NCBI GenBank assembly: GCA_964291395.2
Contig: OZ219856.1
Location: 672,001 to 736,000 of the forward strand
DNA from: Alphaproteobacteria bacterium
GTDB lineage: Bacteria; Pseudomonadota; Alphaproteobacteria; UBA2966
Reading direction: 5' to 3'
DNA length: 64,000 nt
Both the position numbers and the translations under genes were made by a program. The notes below the pieces were generated by a model. The model was not told the origin of the DNA. It saw only the letters and a program-made list of their open reading frames with translations, and did no database searches. Shown here piece after piece: positions 752 to 62,362 of this stretch (positions within the stretch are counted from its first letter, which is position 1; the number at the start of each line of letters is the position of its first letter).

Positions 752-934
752 TTGCCCCGAAGGTCGAACTACAGTTTCGAAAAGCGCCAGCGGGAACTCG
801 CGAAAGCCGAGAAGAAGGCGGCGCGGCTGGAAGCCCGGGCCCGGAAACGGAAACCGCAGGCGGTCGGAGGCAAGTCCGGAGAGAGCGAAGGTCGGGCCGC
901 TGGAGATCCTCCAGAGGTCGAGAAGGCGCGGTGA
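752..934 (+). CDS. Small basic Lys/Arg-rich hypothetical protein
   Basis: TTG start after GAGGAG; NYSFEKRQRELAKAEKK resembles a small conserved proteobacterial hypothetical protein (recalled, unverified). Confidence 0.65.
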   Translation: MPRRSNYSFEKRQRELAKAEKKAARLEARARKRKPQAVGGKSGESEGRAAGDPPEVEKAR

Positions 935-5630: not shown

Positions 5631-5966
5631 GTGGAATATCTCGACCCCAACGTAGTCGCGCCCGTAGCGAGGTTCATCTGGGCTTTGCATCGCGTTGCAC
5701 GGACCACACGAAACCGTGCGAGCCGGATGGGTTGGCTGGAGACCCAGTTGACGGTGGCGGCACGCTACTACGGAGGGAGACGCCGCCAGAGCTTGATTGT
5801 CGTGATCGACGAACTAGACAGGTGTCGTCCGGACTATGCCCTCAGATTCCTCGAGACGATCAAGCATGTGCTCGAGGTCCCGTGCGTGCCTTTCATAATC
5901 GCGGCGAATGCGCGGGAGCTGTCCCAAGCCGTCAATGGAGTGTACGGCGACGGCAAGGTGGAGTGA
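5631..5966 (+). pseudogene. KAP-family P-loop NTPase fragment
   Basis: LIVVIDELDRCRPDYALRFLETIKH is the KAP Walker-B region; no Walker A; only 111 aa. Confidence 0.7.
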
Positions 5967-6950: not shown

Positions 6951-7322
6951 CTAACCCGGCTTCCACTCGGGCAGCGCCGTCCCGCCGGCGAGGTGATCCC
7001 CCGTCTCCGTGGTGCGCAGCAGGACGTAGACGTCGCGCGTCCCCATGACCTCTTCAAAGAGGTCGCAGATCAGCCTGGCGCAGAGGTCCTTCTGTTCCCG
7101 TGACCGTCCCGGCCGCGTGTCGATGGTCACCGTCGGCAGGCCCTTGCCCAATTCGCCGTAGGCTTCCGTGATCGCCGGATAGATCCACTTGCGCGTCTCG
7201 GGAAAGCGGTCGTTCTGGCCCGGGTCGATGGAGTCGTTGATGGCGTCGCGGAGCCCGTCCGCGATCCGGTCCTTGACCTCGTTCGAGTACCCTTCCGGGA
7301 TCTGCACTCTGACGATGGGCAT
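6951..7322 (-). CDS. Tautomerase superfamily protein (two beta-alpha-beta units)
   Basis: N-terminal Pro after Met (MPIVRVQI); second unit TIDTRPGRSREQKD. Confidence 0.8.
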   Translation of the reverse strand: MPIVRVQIPEGYSNEVKDRIADGLRDAINDSIDPGQNDRFPETRKWIYPAITEAYGELGKGLPTVTIDTRPGRSREQKDLCARLICDLFEEVMGTRDVYVLLRTTETGDHLAGGTALPEWKPG

Positions 7323-7387: not shown

Positions 7388-8686
7388 TCATTCCGCCGCG
7401 ATCGCCGGATTGTCCCCGTACTCGGCGTTCCGCCGGCCGTCCGACCCGTCGCCCACCGACCCCGTCACGTAACGGGGGAGCAGCAGGAAGCCGCCGAGGG
7501 CCTGCATCACCTCGTCGTCGCTCTCCCGGCACACCTCGTCGAGCTTCTTGAGCACGGCGCCGGCGGTCGTTTCGTGCCAGAACCAGTCGATGACCTGGGT
7601 CGAGGTCCCCGTGGCCCGTCCCGGCTGGGCGGCGACCGCCTCGAAATACCACGCGCGCATGTCCTCGAACGCGTGCTTGAGGGCCACCGTCGCGCTCATG
7701 TCTTCCGACGGGGAGTCGGGCCACTCATCGCCCAGGAACGCCGCGATGTACCGGGCGTTGCCCTCGATATCGAGGGGGCTGACGCCGACGGTCGTGCGTC
7801 CGCGCTGCTCGACCGACAGTTCGTACCAGGGACGAAGCTGGCCGATCTCGCGCAGCAACGCCTGTTCCAGGGCGACGCCGTCGCCGTTCGTTTGCGGCGG
7901 CGGGGCCTGCAGCTCGATCGGGCACGCCCAGGCCGCCTGATCGTCGCCGGTATCGGCCGGGGACGGCGGCGCGTCCTCGTCGAAGTCCTCCAGGACCGGG
8001 CCGCTCTCCGATTCCAGTGTCCCGAGCAGCGCCTTCAGCACCTTGGTCTGGAACTCCGGATCGTTCGGCGTGCCGAAGGGGCGTCCCAATTCGAAGGGCA
8101 CCCACAGCGCCCGCGGCGGCCTCATCCTTTCCGTTTGGAAACGCACCAGGCTGATGCTCGACGTGGCGATCCCTTCACGCTCCAGATAGTGGCCCAGCGC
8201 GCCGACGGCGCGCGTGCAGCGGGGTCAGACGGGGCACATCAGCACCGTGTCGACCTCGTCTCCGCGCAGCAGCCTGGCGAGCTCCGGCACGTGGGGTTCC
8301 ATGTCCTGGGGCTGGCTCCCGCCCATGAAGGCGTAATGGAACTTCGCCACCGACCCGATGAAGCCCTCGGCCTCCAGTTCGCGCATGCGGTCGATGGGAA
8401 TGACCACGTTGATGTCCTGTTGGAAGCCCGTGCGGTCGAAGTTCGGCGACAGGTGACTCATCACCAGCTCGCTCGGGTCGACGTCGGTCGGAATCAGGCG
8501 GAACTCACCGGAAAAGAACGGGTAGGGCTTGTCGTTCCGGCGCTCGATGCCGGCCGTCGAGATCAGCGCAATTCGCCTTTCCGACAGCGGCTTGGCGGGG
8601 GTCCACGGCGTGTGGTCGAATTCGGGCAGCCGCAGCCCGGCGAGATATTGCCGTTCGTACTCCGGAAGCTCTTCCCAACGTGCCAT
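7388..8686 (-). CDS. Selenoprotein, PrdB/GrdB (proline/glycine reductase B)-like, Sec at codon 154, with C-terminal extension
   Basis: Track ORFs 8225..8686 and 7388..8146 share one frame separated by a single TGA (8225-8227); read-through gives MCPV-U-PRCTRAVGALGHYLEREGIAT; RIALISTAG, QDINVVIPIDR, PRALWVPFELGRPFG are PrdB-type motifs; 432 aa. Confidence 0.9.
8190..8227 (-). promoter_or_regulatory. Putative bacterial SECIS hairpin
   Basis: After UGA: CCCCGCUGCAC GCGCGCC-GUC-GGCGCGC UGGG; 7-bp perfect stem with G-initiated loop 18 nt from UGA. Confidence 0.7.
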
Positions 8687-8704
8687 TGCCGTCTCCTCCT
8701 GATA

Positions 8705-8839
8705 TCAGCGATTTTTGCCTGGAATATACTGATTTTCACGACGCCATATGTTCGGATAAAGCCACGGATCCTGCCGGCCCGGCCGGACGACCGCGCCCTG
8801 GGCACAGATCAACAGATTCGTGTCGAGGAATGCCGTCAC
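8705..8839 (-). pseudogene. VapC/PIN toxin N-terminal remnant
   Basis: GTGA overlap with antitoxin stop; VTAFLDTNLLICAQG then homology is lost. Confidence 0.7.
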
Positions 8840-9080
8840 CGGGTGTTGGCTTCCTCTCGATCGAAGGCATGGTCTTCAGGCATGGGCCAGGCACGTGCGC
8901 GCATCCGTTCGACCGCCCGTTCCCGGCTGTCGTCCCTGGCGACGGCGATACGCTCCGGCGTGGCGGACACGATTTCCAACTCGTCGCCGGATTTCAGGCC
9001 GAGGTCCTCGACCAATGCCTTGGGCAGCCGGACAGCCAGGCTGTTGCCCCATTTCGACGGCCCCATTTCGAGACTTGCAT
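8836..9080 (-). pseudogene. AbrB/MazE-family antitoxin, frameshifted by 14-bp duplication
   Basis: ATG 9080 after GCAGGAG; MQVSKWG / SKWGNSLAVRLPKALVEDLGLKSGDELEI; TCGAAATGGGGC duplicated at 9046-9071. Confidence 0.8.
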
Positions 9081-9285: not shown

Positions 9286-10884
9286 CTATGTCGGGTTCCG
9301 CCGGATCAGGTCCGCCGCGCGCTCGGCGATCATGATGGTCGGAATATTGGTGTTGCTCGAAATCTGATGCGGCATCACCGAGGCGTCGACGACGCGGAGG
9401 CCGTCCAGCCCGCGGACCCGGAGCTCCTCGTCGACGACCGATTCCGGATCGGAGCCCATGCGGCAGGTGCCGATGGGATGCCAGGAGGTCTCGCCGGTCC
9501 GCATGATGTAGTCGAGGATCTCGTCGTCGGTCACGGCGTCCGGCCCCGGGCGGGTCTCCCGCACGATCACCTTCCGCAAGGCGGGTTGCGCCGCGATCTC
9601 CCGCGCCTTCTTGAAGGCGAGCACGGTGGTTTCCCGGTCCCGGGGATGCGCCAGATAGTTGACCTGGATCTTCGGCCGTTCCTCCGGATCGGCGGATTTC
9701 AGGTGGACGGAGCCCCGCGACTCCGGCCACAGATAGTAGGACCCGATGTGGAAGCCGGGAAAGCGGTCGAGGTCCCGGGCATAGCGGCTCGTGCCGCTCG
9801 ACAGGGCGCATTGGATCCGGGCGTCCGGGAATTGCGCCTCCGGGTGGCAGCGCACGAAGGCCTGCACCTTGAAGGTGGGCGTCGAGAAGATCCCGTCCCG
9901 GTGCAGGACGTAGCGGAGCAACTGCCGGGCCGCGTGCCGGGCGCTGCGTACGATGTCGTTGGCCGTGACGGGGTGCGTGGTTTCGAAGTTGAGCCGGTTG
10001 TGCAGGTGGTCCGAGAGGTTCTCCCCGACCGCGGGCAAGTCGCGCACCACCGGGATGCCGTGCGATCCGAGGAGTCCCGCGTCGCCGACGCCCGACAGCT
10101 CGAGCAGGTGCGGCGACGCGACCGCGCCGGCCGACAGCAGAACCTCCCTTCCGGCCCTGACGTCCAGTTCTTCGCCATCCACGCGATAGGCGACGCCGAC
10201 GGCGCGGCGGCCCTCGAACAGGACACGGCTGGCCACGGCATGGGTGACGATATGCAGGTTGGGCCGGCGCTTGGCGTCGTTGAGGTAACCCGCCGCGGTC
10301 CCGCACCGGAACCCCTTGCGGGTGCTCAGCTGATGACGGGTGACCCCTTCGGTGGAGCTCGCGTTGTAGTCCTCGTTCTCCGGCAGGCCGGCCTCCTTGC
10401 AGGCCTCCAGGAACGCTTGTGAGACCGGATCGTCCGTCACCACTTTCGTCGCGTGGATGGGGCCGTCCTGTCCCCGCCACTGCGGATTGCCGAAGGACGC
10501 GGTCTCGAGGCGCTTGAAGTAGGGCAGTACCTCGGGATAGCCCCATCCCGTGCAGCCCATGTCGCGCCACTCGTCGTAGCGCGCCGGTTCTCCGCGCACG
10601 TGGATCATGCCGTTGACCGAGCTGGAGCCGCCGAGCAGGCGCCCGTGGGGCCAGTAGATCGAGCGGCCCGTCATCTCGGGCTCGGTCCGGTCCTTCCAGA
10701 CGTAACGTTCGCTGTCGAGGATCTTGCCGACGCCGAGAGGAATCCTCACCCAGATGTCGTTGTAGTTCCGGCCGCCGGCCTCGAGCAGCAGGACCCGCGT
10801 GCGGCCGTCTTCGGTCAGCCGCGCGGCGAGCGCGCTGCCGGCGGAACCGGCGCCGACGACGATGTGATCGTACCCGGCGGACAT
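9286..10884 (-). CDS. GMC family FAD oxidoreductase (choline dehydrogenase-like)
   Basis: DHIVVGAGSAGS, GRLLGGSSSVNGM, VGENLSDH, HPIGTCRMG, NTNIPTIMIAERAAD. Confidence 0.95.
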   Translation of the reverse strand: MSAGYDHIVVGAGSAGSALAARLTEDGRTRVLLLEAGGRNYNDIWVRIPLGVGKILDSERYVWKDRTEPEMTGRSIYWPHGRLLGGSSSVNGMIHVRGEPARYDEWRDMGCTGWGYPEVLPYFKRLETASFGNPQWRGQDGPIHATKVVTDDPVSQAFLEACKEAGLPENEDYNASSTEGVTRHQLSTRKGFRCGTAAGYLNDAKRRPNLHIVTHAVASRVLFEGRRAVGVAYRVDGEELDVRAGREVLLSAGAVASPHLLELSGVGDAGLLGSHGIPVVRDLPAVGENLSDHLHNRLNFETTHPVTANDIVRSARHAARQLLRYVLHRDGIFSTPTFKVQAFVRCHPEAQFPDARIQCALSSGTSRYARDLDRFPGFHIGSYYLWPESRGSVHLKSADPEERPKIQVNYLAHPRDRETTVLAFKKAREIAAQPALRKVIVRETRPGPDAVTDDEILDYIMRTGETSWHPIGTCRMGSDPESVVDEELRVRGLDGLRVVDASVMPHQISSNTNIPTIMIAERAADLIRRNPT

Positions 10885-10954
10885 GGATCGTTGAAGGAAA
10901 TCGGTGCCGGACCCGGATGCACGAAACGTGTGGGGTCCGACGCCCTCGTTCCCC

Positions 10955-12502
10955 TCAGACGTTGATGGCCGGATCCGGCGTGCCCTGGTTGATGATCACC
11001 GTGCGGCTGCGGGTGAAGTGCTCGAGCATGCTCTCGAGCGACAGCTCCTTGCCGAGGCCGCTCTGGTTGAGCCCTCCGTAGGCGACGTTGGCGATCGGCG
11101 TCCCGTACTGGTTGACCTGAACCAGGCCGGCCTCGATCTCGTCGACGAAGCGCATCGCGTGGTTGAGGTCCCGCGTCCACAACGTCGCGGCGAGGCCGTA
11201 TTCGGTGGCGTTCGCCTTGTCGAGCACGGCGGCGAAGTCCTCCCATTCGAAGACGACCGCGACGGGCCCGAAGATCTCCTCCTGGGCGCACGGTGATTCG
11301 TGCGGCACGTCCTTGATCAGCGTCGGCGCGAAGAAGAGACCCTTGCGCAGCGCCGGGTCGTCCGGCCGCCCGCCGCCGCAGAGGATCTCCGCGCCGGGCG
11401 TGTTGCGCGCCATCTCGACGTACCGGGTGACGCGGTCGAACTGCTCCTGCGAGATGATCGTGCCGATCTCGCTCTCGGGATCCAGCGGATCGCCGATCTT
11501 CAGGTTCTTCATGGCGGCCATGGCGCGTTCGATCACCTGGTCGGCGACCTCCTTGTGCAGGAACAGGCGCGAACCGGCCGTGCAGGACTGCCCTTGGCGC
11601 GAGAACCGCATGCCCTGGATGACGCCGGGGATCGCCAGATCGAGATCGGCATCGGGCATGACGATGTTGGGGCTCTTGCCTCCGAGCTCCAGCGTCACGG
11701 GGCAGATCTTGTCCGCCGCGTAATGCATGATCTGGCGCCCCACCGGGCACGACCCGGTGAACGTGATCTTGCGTACGTCCTTGTGCTCGGCGAGCGGTCG
11801 GCCGCATTCCTCGCCCATGCCCGAGATGGTGTTGACCACGCCGGGCGGGAGCACCCGCTGCGCGAGCTCGGTGCATTTCAGCACGGCGAGGGGCGCCTGC
11901 TCGGCGGTCTTCAGGACGACCGTGTTGCCTGCCACGATGGCGGGAGCGATCTTGCAGGCCCACAGCAGGATCGGCGCGTTCCACGGGATGATCGCGGCGA
12001 CCACCCCGATCGGGTCGCGCGTGGTGTAGTGCAGCGTGCCGTTGAGCCAGGGCACGGTGTTGCCTTTCAGTTCGGTCGCGAATCCCGCGAACATGCGCAG
12101 CACCTCGATGGCCATGCCGAGTTCGGGCCGCGCCTGCGTCGCATACGCGTTGCCGGTCTCCAAGGCTTCGAGTCGGCCGATGTCGTCGGCGTGCTCCTCG
12201 ATGAGGTCGGCGAGCTTGTGCGTGAGCGCGCCGCGTTCCTTGGCGGTCGTGCGCGACCACGACCTGAAGGTCTTCTTGGCCGCGGCGACGGCGCGGTCGA
12301 CGTCGGCCCCGCGGCAGCGGGGCGACGATCCGATGACGTTCAGCCAGGCCGGGTTGACCACCTCGAAGGTCTCGTCGGTCACGGCGGAGTCGAGCTTGCC
12401 GTCGACGACGACCTTGTCGGACAGGCGTGCCGCGTCGTCGTAGGTCGCCTGAACCTCCGGCGCGGGAGTGCCGATTTCCTCGGGAATTTCCTGGACTGAC
12501 AT
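10955..12502 (-). CDS. NAD(P)-dependent aldehyde dehydrogenase
   Basis: IIPWNAP, FTGS, LELGGKSP, GQSCTAGSR, EEIFGPV. Confidence 0.96.
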   Translation of the reverse strand: MSVQEIPEEIGTPAPEVQATYDDAARLSDKVVVDGKLDSAVTDETFEVVNPAWLNVIGSSPRCRGADVDRAVAAAKKTFRSWSRTTAKERGALTHKLADLIEEHADDIGRLEALETGNAYATQARPELGMAIEVLRMFAGFATELKGNTVPWLNGTLHYTTRDPIGVVAAIIPWNAPILLWACKIAPAIVAGNTVVLKTAEQAPLAVLKCTELAQRVLPPGVVNTISGMGEECGRPLAEHKDVRKITFTGSCPVGRQIMHYAADKICPVTLELGGKSPNIVMPDADLDLAIPGVIQGMRFSRQGQSCTAGSRLFLHKEVADQVIERAMAAMKNLKIGDPLDPESEIGTIISQEQFDRVTRYVEMARNTPGAEILCGGGRPDDPALRKGLFFAPTLIKDVPHESPCAQEEIFGPVAVVFEWEDFAAVLDKANATEYGLAATLWTRDLNHAMRFVDEIEAGLVQVNQYGTPIANVAYGGLNQSGLGKELSLESMLEHFTRSRTVIINQGTPDPAINV

Positions 12503-40728: not shown

Positions 40729-41196
40729 GTGACCGAAACGCTCGATCCCAGCAAGCGGCAGAACATCACCCTGGTGACCGGCGTCATCGGTTCCGATACG
40801 CACATCGTCGGCAACCGCATCCTGTCGATGGCACTGGAAGAGGCGGGGTATTCCATCGTCATCCTCGGCGCCCTGACGCCGGCGGACGAATTCATCAAGG
40901 CCGCCATCGAGACGGCAGCCGACGGCATCATGGTTTCGTCGCTCTATGGCCAGGGCGAGCTCGACTGCCGCGGCTTCAGGGAACTTTGCGTCGAAGCGGG
41001 GCTCGACGACATCCTGCTCTACGTGGGGGGCAACCTCGTCGTGGGCAAGACTCCGTGGGAAGTGGTCGAGAAACGCTTTCTGGACATGGGGTTCGACCGC
41101 GCTTTTCCGCCGGGTACGCGCACCCCGGAGGTCGTCGAGGCCCTGGACAGGGATTTCGCCGCGCGCGCCCGGGGCAAGCGGACCGCCGACTCGTGA
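40729..41196 (+). CDS. mamA: Glutamate-mutase-like cobalamin-binding S subunit (GlmS/MamA type)
   Basis: [12 protein letters not shown] (DxHxxG), [16 protein letters not shown]. Confidence 0.9.
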
Positions 41197-42632
41197 GCGG
41201 AGACGCCGCGGCCGCGCTGCTCATCGACTTCGGCAGCACCTACACCAAACTTCGCGCGATCGACCTGGAGCGAGCCGAGATCATCGGTTCGGGCCAGGGA
41301 CCGTCGACGGTCACGACCGACATCACGGTCGGCATGGAGGCGGCGCTCGCGGACCTGGAAGGCCGCATCGGCGGCCTTCCCGATTTCACGTACCGGCTGG
41401 CGACGTCCAGCGCCGCGGGCGGCCTGCGCATGGTCACCGTGGGGCTGGTCAAGGAGCTGACGGCGGAAGCGGCGCGGGTTGCCGCGCTGGGCGCCGGCGC
41501 CAGGCTGATCGGCACGTACGCCTATCGGTTGACCGCCGGCGACATCGCCGGGATCGAGGGTCACAGTCCCGATATCATCCTGCTCGCCGGCGGCACCGAC
41601 GGCGGCAATGACGAAGTGATTCGGCACAATGCCCGGGTCCTCGCGGAGTGCGGCATCACCTGTCCCGTGGTCGTCGCAGGAAACCGGGAGGCGACGGACG
41701 ACATCTCCGCACGGCTGGACTCGGCGGGAAAGACGGCGGTTCCCACCGAGAACGTCATGCCGGAATTCAACGTGCTCAATATCGAGCCGGCGCGCGCCGC
41801 GATCCGCCGGATCTTCATAGATCGGATCGTCCACGCCAAGGGGATCGATCGGGCGGCGGAGATGTTCGACGAGATCCTCATGCCGACGCCGGAGGCGGTC
41901 ATGGAAGGCGCGCGTCTGCTCGCCGACGGCACCGGCGGGCAGAACGGTCTGGGGCCGCTGCTCGTGGTGGACATCGGGGGCGCGACGACGGACGTGCATT
42001 CGGTGGCGGCCGGGGAGCCGACCCTCGAGGGCGCGATTCAGCGAGGGCTGCCCGAGCCTTACGTCAAGCGCACCGTCGAGGGCGATCTCGGGATGCGCCA
42101 CAACGCTCTCTCCATCGTCGAGGCGGCGGGTCTGGACACCCTGGCCTCGGAAGCCAGGCTGACCGGGGATCGCTTCCGGGAAAATCTGGCAATGATTTCC
42201 GGCGACGTGGAACGGCTGCCGGAGACGGACGAGGAACGGGCGGTCGACCGGGCACTCGCGCGTGCCGCGACCCTCATCGCCGTGCGTCGCCACTCGGGCA
42301 GGACCGAGACCGTCTATACGGCCATGGGGCCGGCGGTCGCTCAACACGGAAAGGATTTGTCCGGCGTGGGGGCCGTCATCGGTACCGGCGGCGCGCTCGT
42401 ACACGGAAACGACCCCGCGGGAATCCTGGCCAAAGCGTGCGCCGATCCGAACGACCCGGAGTCGCTCCGTCCGCGTGCGCCCCGCCTGTATCTGGATCGG
42501 GAATATCTGTTATACGCCTGCGGCTTGCTCGGAACCGTGGAGCCGAAAGCCGCCTTGACCTTGGGCCTCGCCCATATGCATCCTGTCGCCGAGGAGGAAC
42601 ACGGGAATGGCCGAAGTTCTGCCGCCGGATAG
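41193..42632 (+). CDS. glmL: GlmL/MutL-type mutase accessory ATPase (actin fold)
   Basis: [50 protein letters not shown]. Confidence 0.92.
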
Positions 42633-44115
42633 CGTTGCGTCGCCACTGTCCGAAATCCGGATTCCGGATGACGAATTCGCCAGGATGCGCAAGGAGAACC
42701 TGGCGCGCTGGCCGACGGGCGCGGGCGTCGATTTCGATGCCGCGGTCGACTACCACAAGAACCTGCCCATGCATAAACGGCTCGCCTGGGTGATGCGGCG
42801 GGCGGACGCGGAGGGCCGCACGCTTACCCAGCCGCGCGGCGGCTTCGGCACGCTGGAGATGCAGAGGGAACTGATGACCACCCTCGACCGGGAGGGCTTG
42901 GCCGACATCGTTCCGACCACGACGGACAGCTACACGCGAAACGAGCGCTGGGAACAGGCCCAGCACGGCATCGAGGAGTCGAAGCGCCTGGGGCGCTCGA
43001 TGCTGAACGGGTTCCCCATGGTGAACTACGGGGTCGAGGACACCCGGAAGCTGATCGAGGCGATCGACAAGCCCGCCGTCATGTTGACCGGCACCGCGAT
43101 GCCCAAACTGACCGGCGAAGTCGGCTACGCGGCCGGGTATTCGGGATATCTGGGATCAGCCATCGCCTACACGCTCTCCTACACCAAGGAGATCCCGATC
43201 GAGATCGGCATCCGCAACTACCAGTACCTCGACCGGCTGGCGTCGATGTACCTGGAGCACGGGGTCGAACTGCACCGCCGCCAACCGGGATTTCTCACCG
43301 GGACCAACATCCCGCCCTGTATCGCCATCGTCACGGCCGTGTTGGACGTGCTGCTGGCCGCGGCTCAGGGCGTTCGCAATTACGGCCTCGAGCTCGGTCA
43401 GACGTTGCACCTGATCCAGGACGCCGCCGCCATCCGGGTCTGCCGCGAGATGTGCCAGGAGTATCTGACCAGGAAGGGATACGAGGACGCGTTCACGCCG
43501 GTGACGTCGTTGCACTGGATGGGGGCCTGGCCGCACGACGACGCCCAGTCGGCGGCGATCGTCGCATATGGCGGCACGCTCGCGGCGGTGGGCGGCGCCA
43601 TCAGCGTCACCACGAAGAGTCTCCACGAGGCCTTCGGCATCCCGACACCGGAAGCAAACGCCGAAGGCCTGCGCGTCACCCGTATGGCCATCTACATGGC
43701 CCGCAGCATCAAGCTCGACGGTCTGCCCGAATACGAACGGGAGAAGGAAGTCATCCGCAAGGAGGTCCGCGCCGTCGTCGACAAGGTGTTGGAGATGGGT
43801 GACGGAGACGCGGCCGTCGGTACCGTACGAGCCTGCGAAGCCGGCGTGCTCGATATCCCGTGGTCCCCGAGCCGTTCGGTCAAGGGCCGCATCCTTCCGG
43901 CCCGCGATGCCGATGGATACCTGCGCATCTTGAACCCGGGTGACATGCCGTTTCCGAAGGAAGTCCTCGACTATCACGAGGAGCGCTTGCGCAAGCGCGC
44001 CGAGAAGGACGGCATGCCCTACGACCATGAGCTCGCAGTCTCGAGCGTCTACGAGATCTCCGAGCCGCTCCAGGCGCTGGCGCCGTTCCCCTATGTCCAG
44101 GAAGCGGCGGAATAG
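42607..44115 (+). CDS. Glutamate-mutase-like E subunit with altered substrate pocket
   Basis: WPTG, QPRGG, DSYTR, NGFPMVNYG, QYLDRL, HWMG, KSLHEAFGIPT, RDADG align with GlmE; see findings. Confidence 0.9.
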   Translation: MAEVLPPDSVASPLSEIRIPDDEFARMRKENLARWPTGAGVDFDAAVDYHKNLPMHKRLAWVMRRADAEGRTLTQPRGGFGTLEMQRELMTTLDREGLADIVPTTTDSYTRNERWEQAQHGIEESKRLGRSMLNGFPMVNYGVEDTRKLIEAIDKPAVMLTGTAMPKLTGEVGYAAGYSGYLGSAIAYTLSYTKEIPIEIGIRNYQYLDRLASMYLEHGVELHRRQPGFLTGTNIPPCIAIVTAVLDVLLAAAQGVRNYGLELGQTLHLIQDAAAIRVCREMCQEYLTRKGYEDAFTPVTSLHWMGAWPHDDAQSAAIVAYGGTLAAVGGAISVTTKSLHEAFGIPTPEANAEGLRVTRMAIYMARSIKLDGLPEYEREKEVIRKEVRAVVDKVLEMGDGDAAVGTVRACEAGVLDIPWSPSRSVKGRILPARDADGYLRILNPGDMPFPKEVLDYHEERLRKRAEKDGMPYDHELAVSSVYEISEPLQALAPFPYVQEAAE

Positions 44116-44142: not shown

Positions 44143-44538
44143 ATGAAACGCATGCACGTCGGCCTCGTCGTCGAGGACGTGGCCGCCTCGGTGACGTTCT
44201 ACACGCGTCTCTTCGGCCAGCCGCCGAGCCTGGAAAAACCCGACTACGCCAAGTGGATGCTCGACGACCCGCGGGTCAACTTCTCGATCAACTCGCGCGG
44301 CAGTACGCCGGGCGACGTGCATCTCGGCATCCAGGCCGAGGACGAAGCCGAACTGGGCGAACTGCGCGAGCGCTGGACGGCGACCGGCTCGGAGACCCTG
44401 GACAGGAAGGCGCTCACGTGCGGCTATCAGACCCAGAACAAGACCTGGGTACGCGACCCCGAAGGCATGCGCTGGGAAGCCTTTCACACCTATGCGGTCA
44501 CCGACACGTTCGGCAAGAGCGAGTCGGAAGAGCGGTAA
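44143..44538 (+). CDS. ArsI/CadI-like VOC protein
   Basis: MKRMHV, DYAKWMLDDPRVNFSI, HLGIQ, WVRDPEGMRWEAF; TCGY rather than the usual CCY. Confidence 0.88.
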   Translation: MKRMHVGLVVEDVAASVTFYTRLFGQPPSLEKPDYAKWMLDDPRVNFSINSRGSTPGDVHLGIQAEDEAELGELRERWTATGSETLDRKALTCGYQTQNKTWVRDPEGMRWEAFHTYAVTDTFGKSESEER

Positions 44539-44567
44539 CGGTTCCGCGCTGCAACTCGGCGCCCATG

Positions 44568-44777
44568 CGGAAGGGGAGTTGACCGGCCATGGCCGACAAG
44601 AAAACCGCGCTGGTTCTGGGTGGAACCGGCATGGTCGGACGGAACCTCGTCATGCTGCTCGACACCCTGGACGACTGGGAGGCGATCGCCGTTTCGCGCC
44701 GGGAACCCTATTTCGAAACCAAGGCGCGTCACATCTCCTGCGACATGACGGAGCCCGACGACTGCAGGGCCAAGCTG
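44568..44777 (+). repeat. 210-bp direct repeat, copy 1 (RBS plus 5' end of SDR gene)
   Basis: Identical by eye to 46217-46426; offset 1649 bp. Confidence 0.95.
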
Positions 44778-44795
44778 GGTGGGCAGCGCGCTTGA
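44589..44795 (+). pseudogene. Truncated duplicate of the 46238 SDR gene
   Basis: First 63 codons identical to 46238 gene, then diverges and stops. Confidence 0.9.
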
Positions 44796-45136
44796 GGTAT
44801 TCACCTACGCCGTGTTCGGCCCACATTTGGTCCTTTACGCGGTGTTCGGCGTTGCTTGCTGCTCAGCCCGATCGTGTTCTGGAGAAACGCCCCTCCTATC
44901 GACCGTATTTGGTCCGGTCCCGGCTTCTGCCTGATCGTGTCACACATGGCCTTGAAGGCTTTACAACGACCTTAAATCAGGCAATTCCGATTATTATTGC
45001 CATAATCTCAACCGCTTGATCGGGCTTCAAATTTCATAAAGTATCGTCAAGTTGTTTCATGCAATTCCATCACGGATTGTGGTGGTGTCGCGCTCCCTTC
45101 GTGGGCGAAACCCGGGAAGGGGGGAAGGGGTGCGAG

Positions 45137-50637: not shown

Positions 50638-50883
50638 ACACGAACTTGCTTCGGGGCCATGAGTTCATAGGCGGCACAGGTCAGTCGGGTCGAGAGATGG
50701 ACAACCCTGCGGAGGGTCCGCAGGCGTGCATGGAAGGGGGAAAGGCAGCGGAGAAAGCACCGGAACCGAAGATTGTCGACCGATATCTCGAGTTGCCATG
50801 CGGGAGCTTCGGTCTACGGCAGGACCGCGCAGATTACGATTTTGCTTTTATAACGTGACGAATAATGCGACTTTGTCAGTGTC

Positions 50884-51706
50884 ATGTATGCATCTGCCGC
50901 ACCGCGCGCGCGCAACGTCATCGCCGATCTGGTCGCCGGAGCGGCCGGCATCACTTCACCTCGTCCGAGCTTCGCTCGGCCCTTGGGGTCTCCGAGGCGG
51001 CTGTGCGCCAGGCGCTGAGCCGCCTTGCGGCCAAGGGGGAGATCGCTAGCCCCGCGCGGGGGTTCTACGTCATCGTGCCGCCCGAGTACAGGCGGCTCGG
51101 CTGCCTGCCGGCGGATCAGTTCATACCGTTGCTGATGGAGCACTGGGGCGCTCGCTACTACGTGGGCCTCCTCTCGGCAGCGCAATTTCACGGCGCGGCC
51201 CATCATCGCCCGCAGGAATTCCAGGTGGTGGTGGAGAAGAACCGGCCGGCGATAATTTGCGGGGCCGTCCACGTCGCCTTCGTCGCGCGCCGGAACCTCG
51301 ATGCGGTGCCGGTCGAGACGTTCAACAATCCGCGCGGAACCGTTCTTGTCTCGACCGTGGAAGCGACGGCGGTCGACCTCGTCGGATACTTGCGTCGCTC
51401 CGGAGGCGTGGACCGGGTGGCGGGCATACTTTCCGAGCTCAGCGAGGACATGGACCCGGAGCGTCTCGTCGAGGCTTCGAATTCAGCGTCGATCCTCTGG
51501 GCGCAGCGTCTGGGCTACCGGGATCTGGAGCATGTTGGGGCCGGAGACAGAGCGGTGCTGCTCAAGGAGCATGTGCGGCGGCGCGCGCTACAAACTACAC
51601 GAAGCTGGCGGCTGCCCGGCGCGGGACACCGCGGATGCGCCGTTCGGTCGACAGGACTGCTCAGGCGGGGTTCGTGAACGCAAGCATCGACTGCGCGGAT
51701 GCGTGA
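50884..51706 (+). pseudogene. Type IV TA antitoxin AbiEi family, frameshifted
   Basis: HFTSSE, PARGFYVIVPPEY, YYVGLLSAAQFHGAAHHRPQ, STVEATAVDLV; ATG and C-terminus out of frame. Confidence 0.82.
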
Positions 51707-61525: not shown

Positions 61526-62362
61526 TCACGGTCGGGAGGACACGTTCCGGCCGGGGGAGCCGGCCGTGATGGCGTCGTCGGAGAGCTCGGCGAGATCTTC
61601 CCGATAGGGATAGTTCACATAGGGCGTCATATGTTCCCGCTTGATTTTCGACTCGACGGGAAGGTTGTCCGACCGGTTGTAGATGAACATCAGATACAGT
61701 CGGTCCCGGTCCGAGTGGTTCTCCCCCGACCCGTGCATGATTTCGGGCGCGAAGAGGATCACGTCGCCGGGCTTCCCTTCGATGAACTCGGGCGACGTCT
61801 CCGCGAGCATCTTTTTCACGTACGCATCGGGCGCGTTGAAGGACTGGTAGCCCACGGACTCGGTATCGAAGAACAGCTCGCCCACGCCGTGCCGGTGGGA
61901 TCCCGGCAGAACCCGCATGGCGCCGTTCTCCGGCGTCGATTCCGTCAAGAGGACACAGATCGTGATCATGTCGTTGACGGAGCCGCGCCGGATGCCGTCG
62001 TTGATCCAGTTCGCGAAGTCGGTGTGCCAGGGATATCCCTCGCCCACGCGTCCCATCTTGGCGTTGACACGCGTCTGAAACAGGTAGACGTGTCCGCCTA
62101 GCAGCTGCTTCACGGGGCCGACAATGCGCGGGAGTCTCACGGCCGCGGCCACGGCTTCGGAATCGAGGTCGATCCCGAAGCTGACGCGCGTGGAGTCGCT
62201 GTTCAGCTCGGAGATGTTGCCGTCGGGATGGTTCCGGTCCGGCGACAGGATCGCATAACAGTCCGCGCGCAGGATCTCCATCTCCTCGGGCGTGAAGACG
62301 GCTGGAACCTTCAGATACCCCTCGGCGTAATAGGTATCGATCTGTGCCTGCGTAAGCCTCAT
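61526..62362 (-). CDS. Phytanoyl-CoA dioxygenase/EctD-like Fe(II)/2OG dioxygenase
   Basis: WHTDF, ENGAMRVLPGSH, MHGSGENHSDRDR. Confidence 0.9.
   Translation of the reverse strand: MRLTQAQIDTYYAEGYLKVPAVFTPEEMEILRADCYAILSPDRNHPDGNISELNSDSTRVSFGIDLDSEAVAAAVRLPRIVGPVKQLLGGHVYLFQTRVNAKMGRVGEGYPWHTDFANWINDGIRRGSVNDMITICVLLTESTPENGAMRVLPGSHRHGVGELFFDTESVGYQSFNAPDAYVKKMLAETSPEFIEGKPGDVILFAPEIMHGSGENHSDRDRLYLMFIYNRSDNLPVESKIKREHMTPYVNYPYREDLAELSDDAITAGSPGRNVSSRP

Follow-up and report, generated by a model that had tools for sequence, protein, structure and literature searches.

The window analyzed here is a stretch of 64,000 nucleotides of an Alphaproteobacteria bacterium of lineage UBA2966 (GenBank assembly GCA_964291395.2, contig OZ219856.1, positions 672,001 to 736,000 of the forward strand). 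The region that extends from position 8686 to position 7388 on its minus strand is very probably a single gene whose product, a selenoprotein of 432 residues, belongs to the GrdB/PrdB superfamily. The predicted decoding of UGA154 as selenocysteine (Sec) is strongly supported. The same can be said of the proposal that a hairpin located next to this codon acts as a bacterial selenocysteine insertion sequence (SECIS), recruiting SelB with Sec-tRNA(Sec), and of the expectation that, in cells lacking selenium or the decoding machinery, translation would end after residue 153. The gene is a further member of a selenoprotein family that has been in print since 2005. Hence, the word "hidden", which the original prediction (made from the nucleotide sequence of the window) had applied to this selenoprotein, has to be dropped, as the family was already reported as one of selenoproteins in that year (PMC1088965).

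Results

The Reading Frame and the UGA Codon

Translation of the frame with TGA read as U produced 432 residues followed by the terminal stop, and the sole internal TGA was codon 154. Both the claim that one TGA breaks an otherwise open 432-codon frame of the minus strand and the placement of this TGA, the U of CPV-U-PRC, at 8225-8227 were therefore confirmed. The codon is found in the context VLMCPV-U-PRCTRA, which reads on as ...VLMCPV-U-PRCTRAVGALGHY... The original prediction had also pointed to an extra Cys upstream of the motif. This residue, C151, is present in the window but it is not a conserved feature, being limited to the window and five of the 80 related loci described below (L001-L004 and L029). 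The features of the gene and its product are collected in Table 1.

Table 1. Location of the features of the predicted selenoprotein gene within the window
Feature	Position	Strand	Details
Complete selenoprotein gene (predicted)	7388..8686	minus	432 codons plus terminal TGA (7388..7390), one in-frame predicted Sec-TGA; G+C at third codon positions coding-like in both halves
Predicted Sec-UGA, codon 154, U of UxxC	8225..8227	minus	Codon of the partner Cys157 at 8216..8218
Putative bacterial SECIS hairpin, GCGCGCC-GUC-GGCGCGC	8197..8213	minus	7-bp stem, GUC loop at 8204..8206
Shine-Dalgarno-like AGGAGGAG	8693..8700	minus	6 nt upstream of the ATG at 8686; read from the sequence
PrdB-like alpha/beta domain, residues 28-230	7997..8605	minus	TIGR04483 match, PrdB alignment, AlphaFold2 pLDDT mostly > 90
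C-terminal helical domain, residues ~255-410	7457..7924	minus	Starts at the nearly invariant Cys255 (WACP); AlphaFold2 helices 270-408

The base composition is that of a gene on both sides of the interruption. In the same frame, the G+C content at third codon positions (GC3) was 0.85 upstream and 0.90 downstream of the TGA, and the corresponding values at second positions (GC2) were 0.41 and 0.50. The codon-position G+C of both halves thus follows the gene pattern of the window, which has an overall G+C content of 66.5%. The whole window was also scanned for TGA codons with at least 60 coding-like codons on either side, and two sites were recovered: codon 154 and a TGA at 61526..61528, which is an ordinary stop that separates two adjacent genes. 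TGA is the commonest stop codon in the window, ending 24 of the 42 genes that have Pfam support (the end of the selenoprotein gene itself is included in this count), and the genetic code is therefore standard.

Conservation of the UGA Codon in Relatives

One genome per species was scanned, which yielded 587 relatives of the gene, and the best 80 loci were kept and examined. They belong to Alphaproteobacteria, Desulfobacterota, Dehalococcoidia, Gammaproteobacteria, and other groups, and share 46-88% identity with the window protein; the closest relatives (OZ241357.1 and OZ251449.1) are syntenic, with 87-88% identity. TGA occupies the aligned codon in all 80, in the context P(V/I)-U-PxC(T/S). 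An exhaustive search of protein representatives returned 3994 clusters at E <= 1e-3 and 609 at E <= 1e-30. Among the best 150 representatives, 131 are shorter than 300 amino acids and 18 have 350 amino acids or more. The Sec column is occupied by Cys, within P(V/T)-C-PxC, in 16 of these 18 long proteins, the other two being mis-joined open reading frames (ORFs), and the Cys-type full-length homologs (~380-419 amino acids) span both halves of the gene. The original prediction had named homologs with neither Cys nor TGA at this position as evidence that would speak against a selenoprotein; what was found is TGA throughout the best related loci and Cys in the long representatives other than the two mis-joined ones. 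Codon 154 aligns with Sec151 of a clostridial PrdB annotated in RefSeq (WP_148296006.1), which agrees with the claim that PrdB and GrdB carry Sec in a UxxC motif at the same position.

These comparisons bear on the possibility that the TGA is a nonsense mutation, or an assembly error, in a decaying gene of the Cys type. Such a pseudogene could be envisaged given that full-length Cys-type homologs exist and that a single change converts TGC into TGA. However, the TGA is at the same codon in every one of the related loci, which come from several phyla, and downstream of it the frame remains open, the sequence is conserved, and GC3 stays at the high value given above. We give practically no credence to this explanation.

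Some of the related loci have more than one copy of the gene. A second Sec-containing copy lies in tandem, ~1.2 kb apart, in L009 (10460 and 11689), L014 (10460 and 11691), and L015 (10460 and 11689), while L037 has two Sec-containing paralogs that are further apart (2173 and 10460). Each paralog in these four loci has its own TGA and hairpin.

Representation of the Gene in Protein Databases

The expectation that standard annotation would split or miss the gene proved correct. Among the best 120 database proteins, 93 are C-terminal pieces of 238-274 amino acids, corresponding exclusively to the portion beyond the TGA, and those that have a name are called "hypothetical protein". The remaining 27 are full-length proteins of 380-724 amino acids with a PF07355 domain. 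This abundance of stand-alone ORFs, together with the predominance of proteins under 300 amino acids among the best representatives, could be taken to mean that there are two genes, one stopping at the UGA and an independent one, coding for a protein of ~252 amino acids, that starts downstream. Nonetheless, the database ORFs start at whichever GTG, ATG, or TTG comes first after the TGA, e.g., within the VGALGH peptide. Besides, the split would cut through the center of the PrdB-like domain, a domain that runs uninterrupted in true PrdB and the Cys homologs, and in the AlphaFold2 (AF2) model described below residues 30-235 make up a single domain that spans the site. Two separate genes are thus extremely improbable.

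The Hairpin Downstream of the UGA Codon

The hairpin begins 11 nt after the UGA, with 18 nt between the UGA and the loop. Judged from the window alone, it is only weakly beyond chance: the bare 17-nt sequence folds with a free energy of -12.9 kcal/mol (z -2.54), and 4 of 200 shuffles fold as well. The published bSECISearch model of bacterial SECIS elements, as summarized in a 2026 review (PMC13188914), describes a loop of 3-9 nt with G in its first two positions, a stem of 4-16 bp, a spacing of 16-37 nt, and a minimum free energy <= -7.5. The window hairpin, with its 3-nt loop starting with G and then U, its 7-bp stem, and the spacing and free energy already mentioned, lies within all of these ranges. 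It is therefore like the bacterial SECIS consensus in loop size, stem length, loop G and U, spacing, and free energy; the difference is found in the relatives, many of which carry a G-G mismatch in the lower stem.

An alignment of 85 sequences (84 of them distinct), gapless from the TGA onward, was used to assess the conservation of the structure, which was tested as 10 pairs, i.e., the 7-bp stem and a weaker outer stem of 3 bp. The loop nucleotides G22 and U23 are invariant in the 85 sequences. In the distinct sequences 82.4% of the cells pair, as opposed to 29-60% after a displacement of the 3' partner by 1-3 columns. At pair 16-30, 74 sequences have C-G, six have U-A, and one has A-U; double changes are also found at pairs 17-29 and 19-27. 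The total of 12 double-change cells was not reached by any of 500 shuffles, and the covariation score (0.111 vs 0.096) was reached by two of 500. As a control independent of the protein, we considered the 21 relatives with a gene GC3 below 0.6 (mean 0.52), in which the five synonymous (third-codon) positions of the stem are G or C at a frequency of 0.89. The agreement with the published model, the covariation, and the constraint on synonymous sites sustain the original claim of a SECIS located just 3' of the UGA with its loop 18 nt away.

Selenocysteine Machinery in Related Loci

In relatives more distant than the four closest ones, the gene is often physically linked to the Sec machinery. ARAGORN identified a tRNA-Sec (anticodon TCA) within the analyzed flanks of 10 of the 80 loci; half of the 20 tRNA genes identified in the whole set are thus tRNA-Sec genes. 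In L038 it is located ~120 nt upstream of the gene. Clustering of the neighbor ORFs by BLAST found SelB in nine loci, SelA in eight, and SelD in seven, for 11 loci in all. One representative of each was compared with NCBIfam and scored above the equivalog cutoff (selB, 440 vs 242; selA, 584 vs 268; SelD, 523.5 vs 299).

This linkage has to be considered together with the possibility that a suppressor or variant tRNA inserts Cys, Trp, or Gly, and not Sec, at UGA154. No Sec machinery was seen in the window, and Cys is functional at this site in relatives, both of which would suit such a reading. On the other hand, TGA is the commonest ordinary stop of the window, a SECIS-type hairpin is conserved after the codon, and tRNA-Sec and selA, selB, or selD adjoin the gene in 10-11 of the 80 relatives. 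Insertion of an ordinary amino acid is, in our opinion, very improbable.

In two of the loci, L035 and L049, the gene is directly preceded by an ORF (9462-9740 and 7558-7833, respectively) that is cut at 92-93 amino acids and belongs to UGSC (PF24696), a further family of selenoproteins. These ORFs are located beside tRNA-Sec and selA, selB, and selD, making up a small selenium island. Another locus, L031, includes a 98-nt tRNA identified by ARAGORN (816-913, minus strand) that has an odd two-base anticodon, "ca"; the same locus has a SelD-like ORF. This tRNA may be a mis-scored tRNA-Sec.

Protein Family and Predicted Structure

By its sequence, the protein is a member of the GrdB/PrdB superfamily, as had been predicted. 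Pfam PF07355 (GRDB superfamily) matched residues 12-150 with 40.2 bits, above the gathering score of 22. The best NCBIfam match was PrdB (TIGR04483), at residues 28-225 with an E value of 8e-35, and its 120.3 bits are far below the cutoff of 300. The models for GrdB, GrdF, and GrdH (TIGR01917, NF040794, and NF040795) gave 41-57 bits, all below cutoffs of 602-800 (for GrdB TIGR01917, 40.7 vs 602.2 bits). The annotated PrdB encoded by a plasmid of Peptoclostridium acidaminophilum (WP_148296006.1, 237 amino acids) shares 35% identity with the window protein in an alignment of residues 28-230 of the latter with residues 23-227.

The last ~200 residues of the protein had no match in Pfam or NCBIfam. 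They make up a second domain in which RGRTTVG, EDxxAxYxEA, and QPG are conserved motifs. A confident AF2 model was built on 43 sequences, with a predicted local distance difference test (pLDDT) of 86.2 and a predicted template modeling score (pTM) of 0.87. It shows an alpha/beta domain (residues ~30-235) in which Sec154 opens helix 155-170 directly after strand 147-151. This domain is followed by a poorly modeled linker (~246-252) and then by the helices of the second domain.

Relationship to D-Proline Reductase

Four features of PrdB were looked for in the window protein. It has a U-x-x-C motif at the homologous position, and it fails in the other three: a score at the TIGR04483 cutoff, a PrdA partner, and a single domain of ~240 residues. 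PrdA, a pyruvoyl proprotein, is the operon partner of PrdB. It was searched for, together with GrdE and GrdA, among the immediate neighbors of the gene, defined as the closest ORF to either side at a distance of up to 600 bp, which amounted to 148 ORFs from 78 of the 80 loci. None of the 148 matched the PrdA, GrdE, or GrdA families, and the scanned genes of the window gave no match to them either.

The sequence comparisons thus indicate that the window protein is probably not a true D-proline reductase. A genuine PrdB subunit whose PrdA is encoded elsewhere is an unlikely alternative in view of the low score against the equivalog model, the additional domain of ~200 amino acids that is not found in the 237-residue PrdB, the lack of PrdA, GrdE, and GrdA matches in the neighborhoods just described, and the hosts, which include many Alphaproteobacteria and Dehalococcoidia, not Stickland fermenters. 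The arguments for it are that PrdB is the best family match, with the identity extending over the whole length of PrdB and Sec aligned with Sec, and that "proline reductase" is the label used in the literature.

Neighboring Genes

The immediate neighbors were diverse in their Pfam domains, which included HAD, RidA, MFS, amidase, MEDS regulators, DUF1638, and DUF3047, among others. In the window, the selenoprotein gene is followed on its own strand, after 65 nt, by a 123-amino acid ORF of the tautomerase superfamily with a Met-Pro start (6951-7322, minus strand), which may share an operon with it. The conservation of this ORF does not extend beyond L001 and L002, the two closest relatives.

A choline-dehydrogenase-like GMC oxidoreductase and a betaine-aldehyde-dehydrogenase-like enzyme are encoded upstream of the selenoprotein gene (9286-12502, minus strand). 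A link of the selenoprotein to the choline-to-betaine pathway was considered, rejected as evidence, and kept as a hint only: the two proteins scored below the cutoffs for BetA (566.6 vs 605) and BetB (443.5 vs 668.6), and a GMC neighbor is present in only 6 of 81 loci, mostly those of close relatives. A 76-amino acid ORF of the MazE/AbrB type (SpoVT-AbrB; 8836-9066, minus strand) separates the gene for the GMC oxidoreductase from that for the selenoprotein.

Two Cys-type full-length relatives, P0030 and P0032 (708 and 724 amino acids), are fused at their C-terminus to a TauD/TfdA dioxygenase domain. The best NCBIfam match of P0030 was taurine dioxygenase, below the cutoff.

Other genes of the window include a 111-amino acid ORF (5631-5966, plus strand) that matches only positions 151-206 of the 293-position profile of the KAP-family P-loop NTPases and looks like a gene remnant. 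A gene for an AbiEi-type antitoxin with AbiEi_1 and AbiEi_4 domains (50865-51677, plus strand) and one for a glutamate (methylaspartate) mutase E chain (42607-44115, plus strand; PF06368, E 4e-141) were also identified. The E-chain gene is surrounded by ORFs, at 40946-42793 and 44492-45019, that had no Pfam match.

Discussion

Several of the results must be weighed against the interpretation of the gene as a selenoprotein gene with its own SECIS. When the hairpin was folded in contexts of 27, 48, and 66 nt, it did no better than shuffled sequences (z -0.56, +0.03, and +0.74), and a search of the whole window with Rfam at gathering thresholds returned no match. Therefore, the window alone is no proof of a SECIS. 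In the alignment, pair 17-29 is a G-G mismatch in 40 of the 84 distinct sequences, and double changes occur at no more pairs (three) than expected from shuffles (261 of 500). The hairpin also overlaps the conserved peptide CTRAVG, and part of its conservation is therefore driven by the protein. As for the machinery, no tRNA gene of any kind was found in the window and none of its 56 ORFs scanned was a SelA, SelB, or SelD, nor were selA, selB, selC, or selD found in the ~21-kb loci (~12 kb in the case of L003) of the four closest relatives, L001-L004. Thus, that this organism decodes Sec is something we infer. With regard to the catalytic mechanism and the substrate, the gene has no conserved neighbor, as BLAST clusters of 3145 ORFs from 81 loci included none present in more than nine loci, apart from gene halves and shadow ORFs. 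In addition, a search of the Protein Data Bank (PDB) with the single protein found nothing, a profile search gave chance matches only (E ~0.7), and Foldseek, with the model searched whole, found no match in the PDB at E <= 0.001 (template modeling score <= 0.25); the fold provides no functional lead. It is the comparative data that carry the weight of the case for a putative SECIS, and a single selenoprotein gene is still, with high probability, the best explanation overall.

Members of this family have been recorded repeatedly in marine environments under the name of proline reductase. In the Sargasso Sea selenoproteome, "Proline reductase (PrdB)" ranked third in abundance among the selenoprotein families, with 42 genes (Zhang, Fomenko & Gladyshev 2005, PMC1088965). 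The "Proline reductase PrdB" entries in the supplement of that work include sequences such as ...FLVPVuPFCTRAVSVLAHFFE...PPRALW...RTTVGAS...WFWEKT, C-terminal domain included, and the signatures PVuPFCTRAV, PPRALW, RTTVG, and WFW match conserved columns of the alignment of relatives assembled here. There is no essential difference between the "PrdB" family of the marine surveys and the window protein, which have in common PF07355, UxxC, PVuPxCTRAV, PPRALW, GRPxG, RTTVG, and WFW. A survey of the Global Ocean Sampling data listed 235 forms with Sec and 110 with Cys for pfam07355, with the motif UxxC (Zhang & Gladyshev 2008, PMC2398784), and proline reductase has been given as 6.4% of the marine selenoprotein genes (PMC9402790). 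Five "proline reductase" selenoproteins were reported in 2007 in the Delta-1 symbiont of Olavius (PMC1976440), the organism from which the related locus L033 comes.

The name was assigned in these surveys by best hit, and the missing PrdA and the extra domain are not discussed in the accessible portions of their texts (PMC1088965, PMC2398784, and PMC1976440). As far as the available parts of reviews from 2022 and 2026 go, only the clostridial enzyme is described under the name of proline reductase. A limited search of full-text literature found no functional study of the marine PrdB-like family. Clostridial PrdB and the window protein are homologous over the whole length of PrdB, with Sec aligned and U-x-x-C in both. 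They differ in that PrdB has 237 amino acids and is devoid of the helical C-terminal domain present in the 432-residue window protein, and in that the motif is AG-U-GTCHR in PrdB and PV-U-PxCTR in the window protein. A prdB-prdC operon is mentioned in PMC13188914. GrdB has the Sec-bearing domain in common with the window protein, which matches profile positions ~200-420 of models of ~435 residues; the homologous domain is, however, C-terminal in GrdB and N-terminal in the window protein. The GrdB motif UxxCxxC (PMC13188914) is absent from the window protein, where the sequence is U-P-R-C-T-R-A. The name "PrdB" is, then, probably wrong for the marine family.

The family and the geometry of the motif suggest a possible function, which we advance with somewhat less than even confidence: a thiol/selenol-dependent reductase that would act on its own and not form part of a Stickland D-proline reductase. 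In this mechanism, Sec154, at the N-terminus of the helix that follows a beta-strand, would be the nucleophile. Cys157 would resolve the adduct, forming a selenenylsulfide that a dithiol donor would reduce again. The family-specific helical C-terminal domain, with Cys255, would supply substrate binding or a redox relay, the role that pyruvoyl PrdA has in clostridia. The TauD fusions of Cys-type relatives and the choline-dehydrogenase-like and betaine-aldehyde-dehydrogenase-like neighbors in the window hint weakly at an amine or osmolyte as the substrate.

Taken together, the observations lend themselves to a broader interpretation that we regard as rather doubtful when all its parts are combined. 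The marine and soil "PrdB" selenoproteins would not be proline reductases; they would constitute a distinct, self-contained two-domain selenoenzyme in which the helical C-terminal domain with Cys255 replaces the pyruvoyl subunit, with a fold that has no solved relative. It would perhaps be chiefly for this enzyme that the Sec machinery is retained in many aerobic Alphaproteobacteria and Dehalococcoidia, as is suggested by the linkage to sel genes or tRNA-Sec in 10-11 of the 80 loci.

One of the more abundant marine selenoprotein families probably carries a borrowed name. Furthermore, public protein sets contain this gene, like most of its relatives, in the form of two pieces that make no sense separately. 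As most database copies are fragments and no NCBIfam model reaches its cutoff, the size of the selenoproteome is underestimated in many uncultured Alphaproteobacteria, Desulfobacterota, and Dehalococcoidia.

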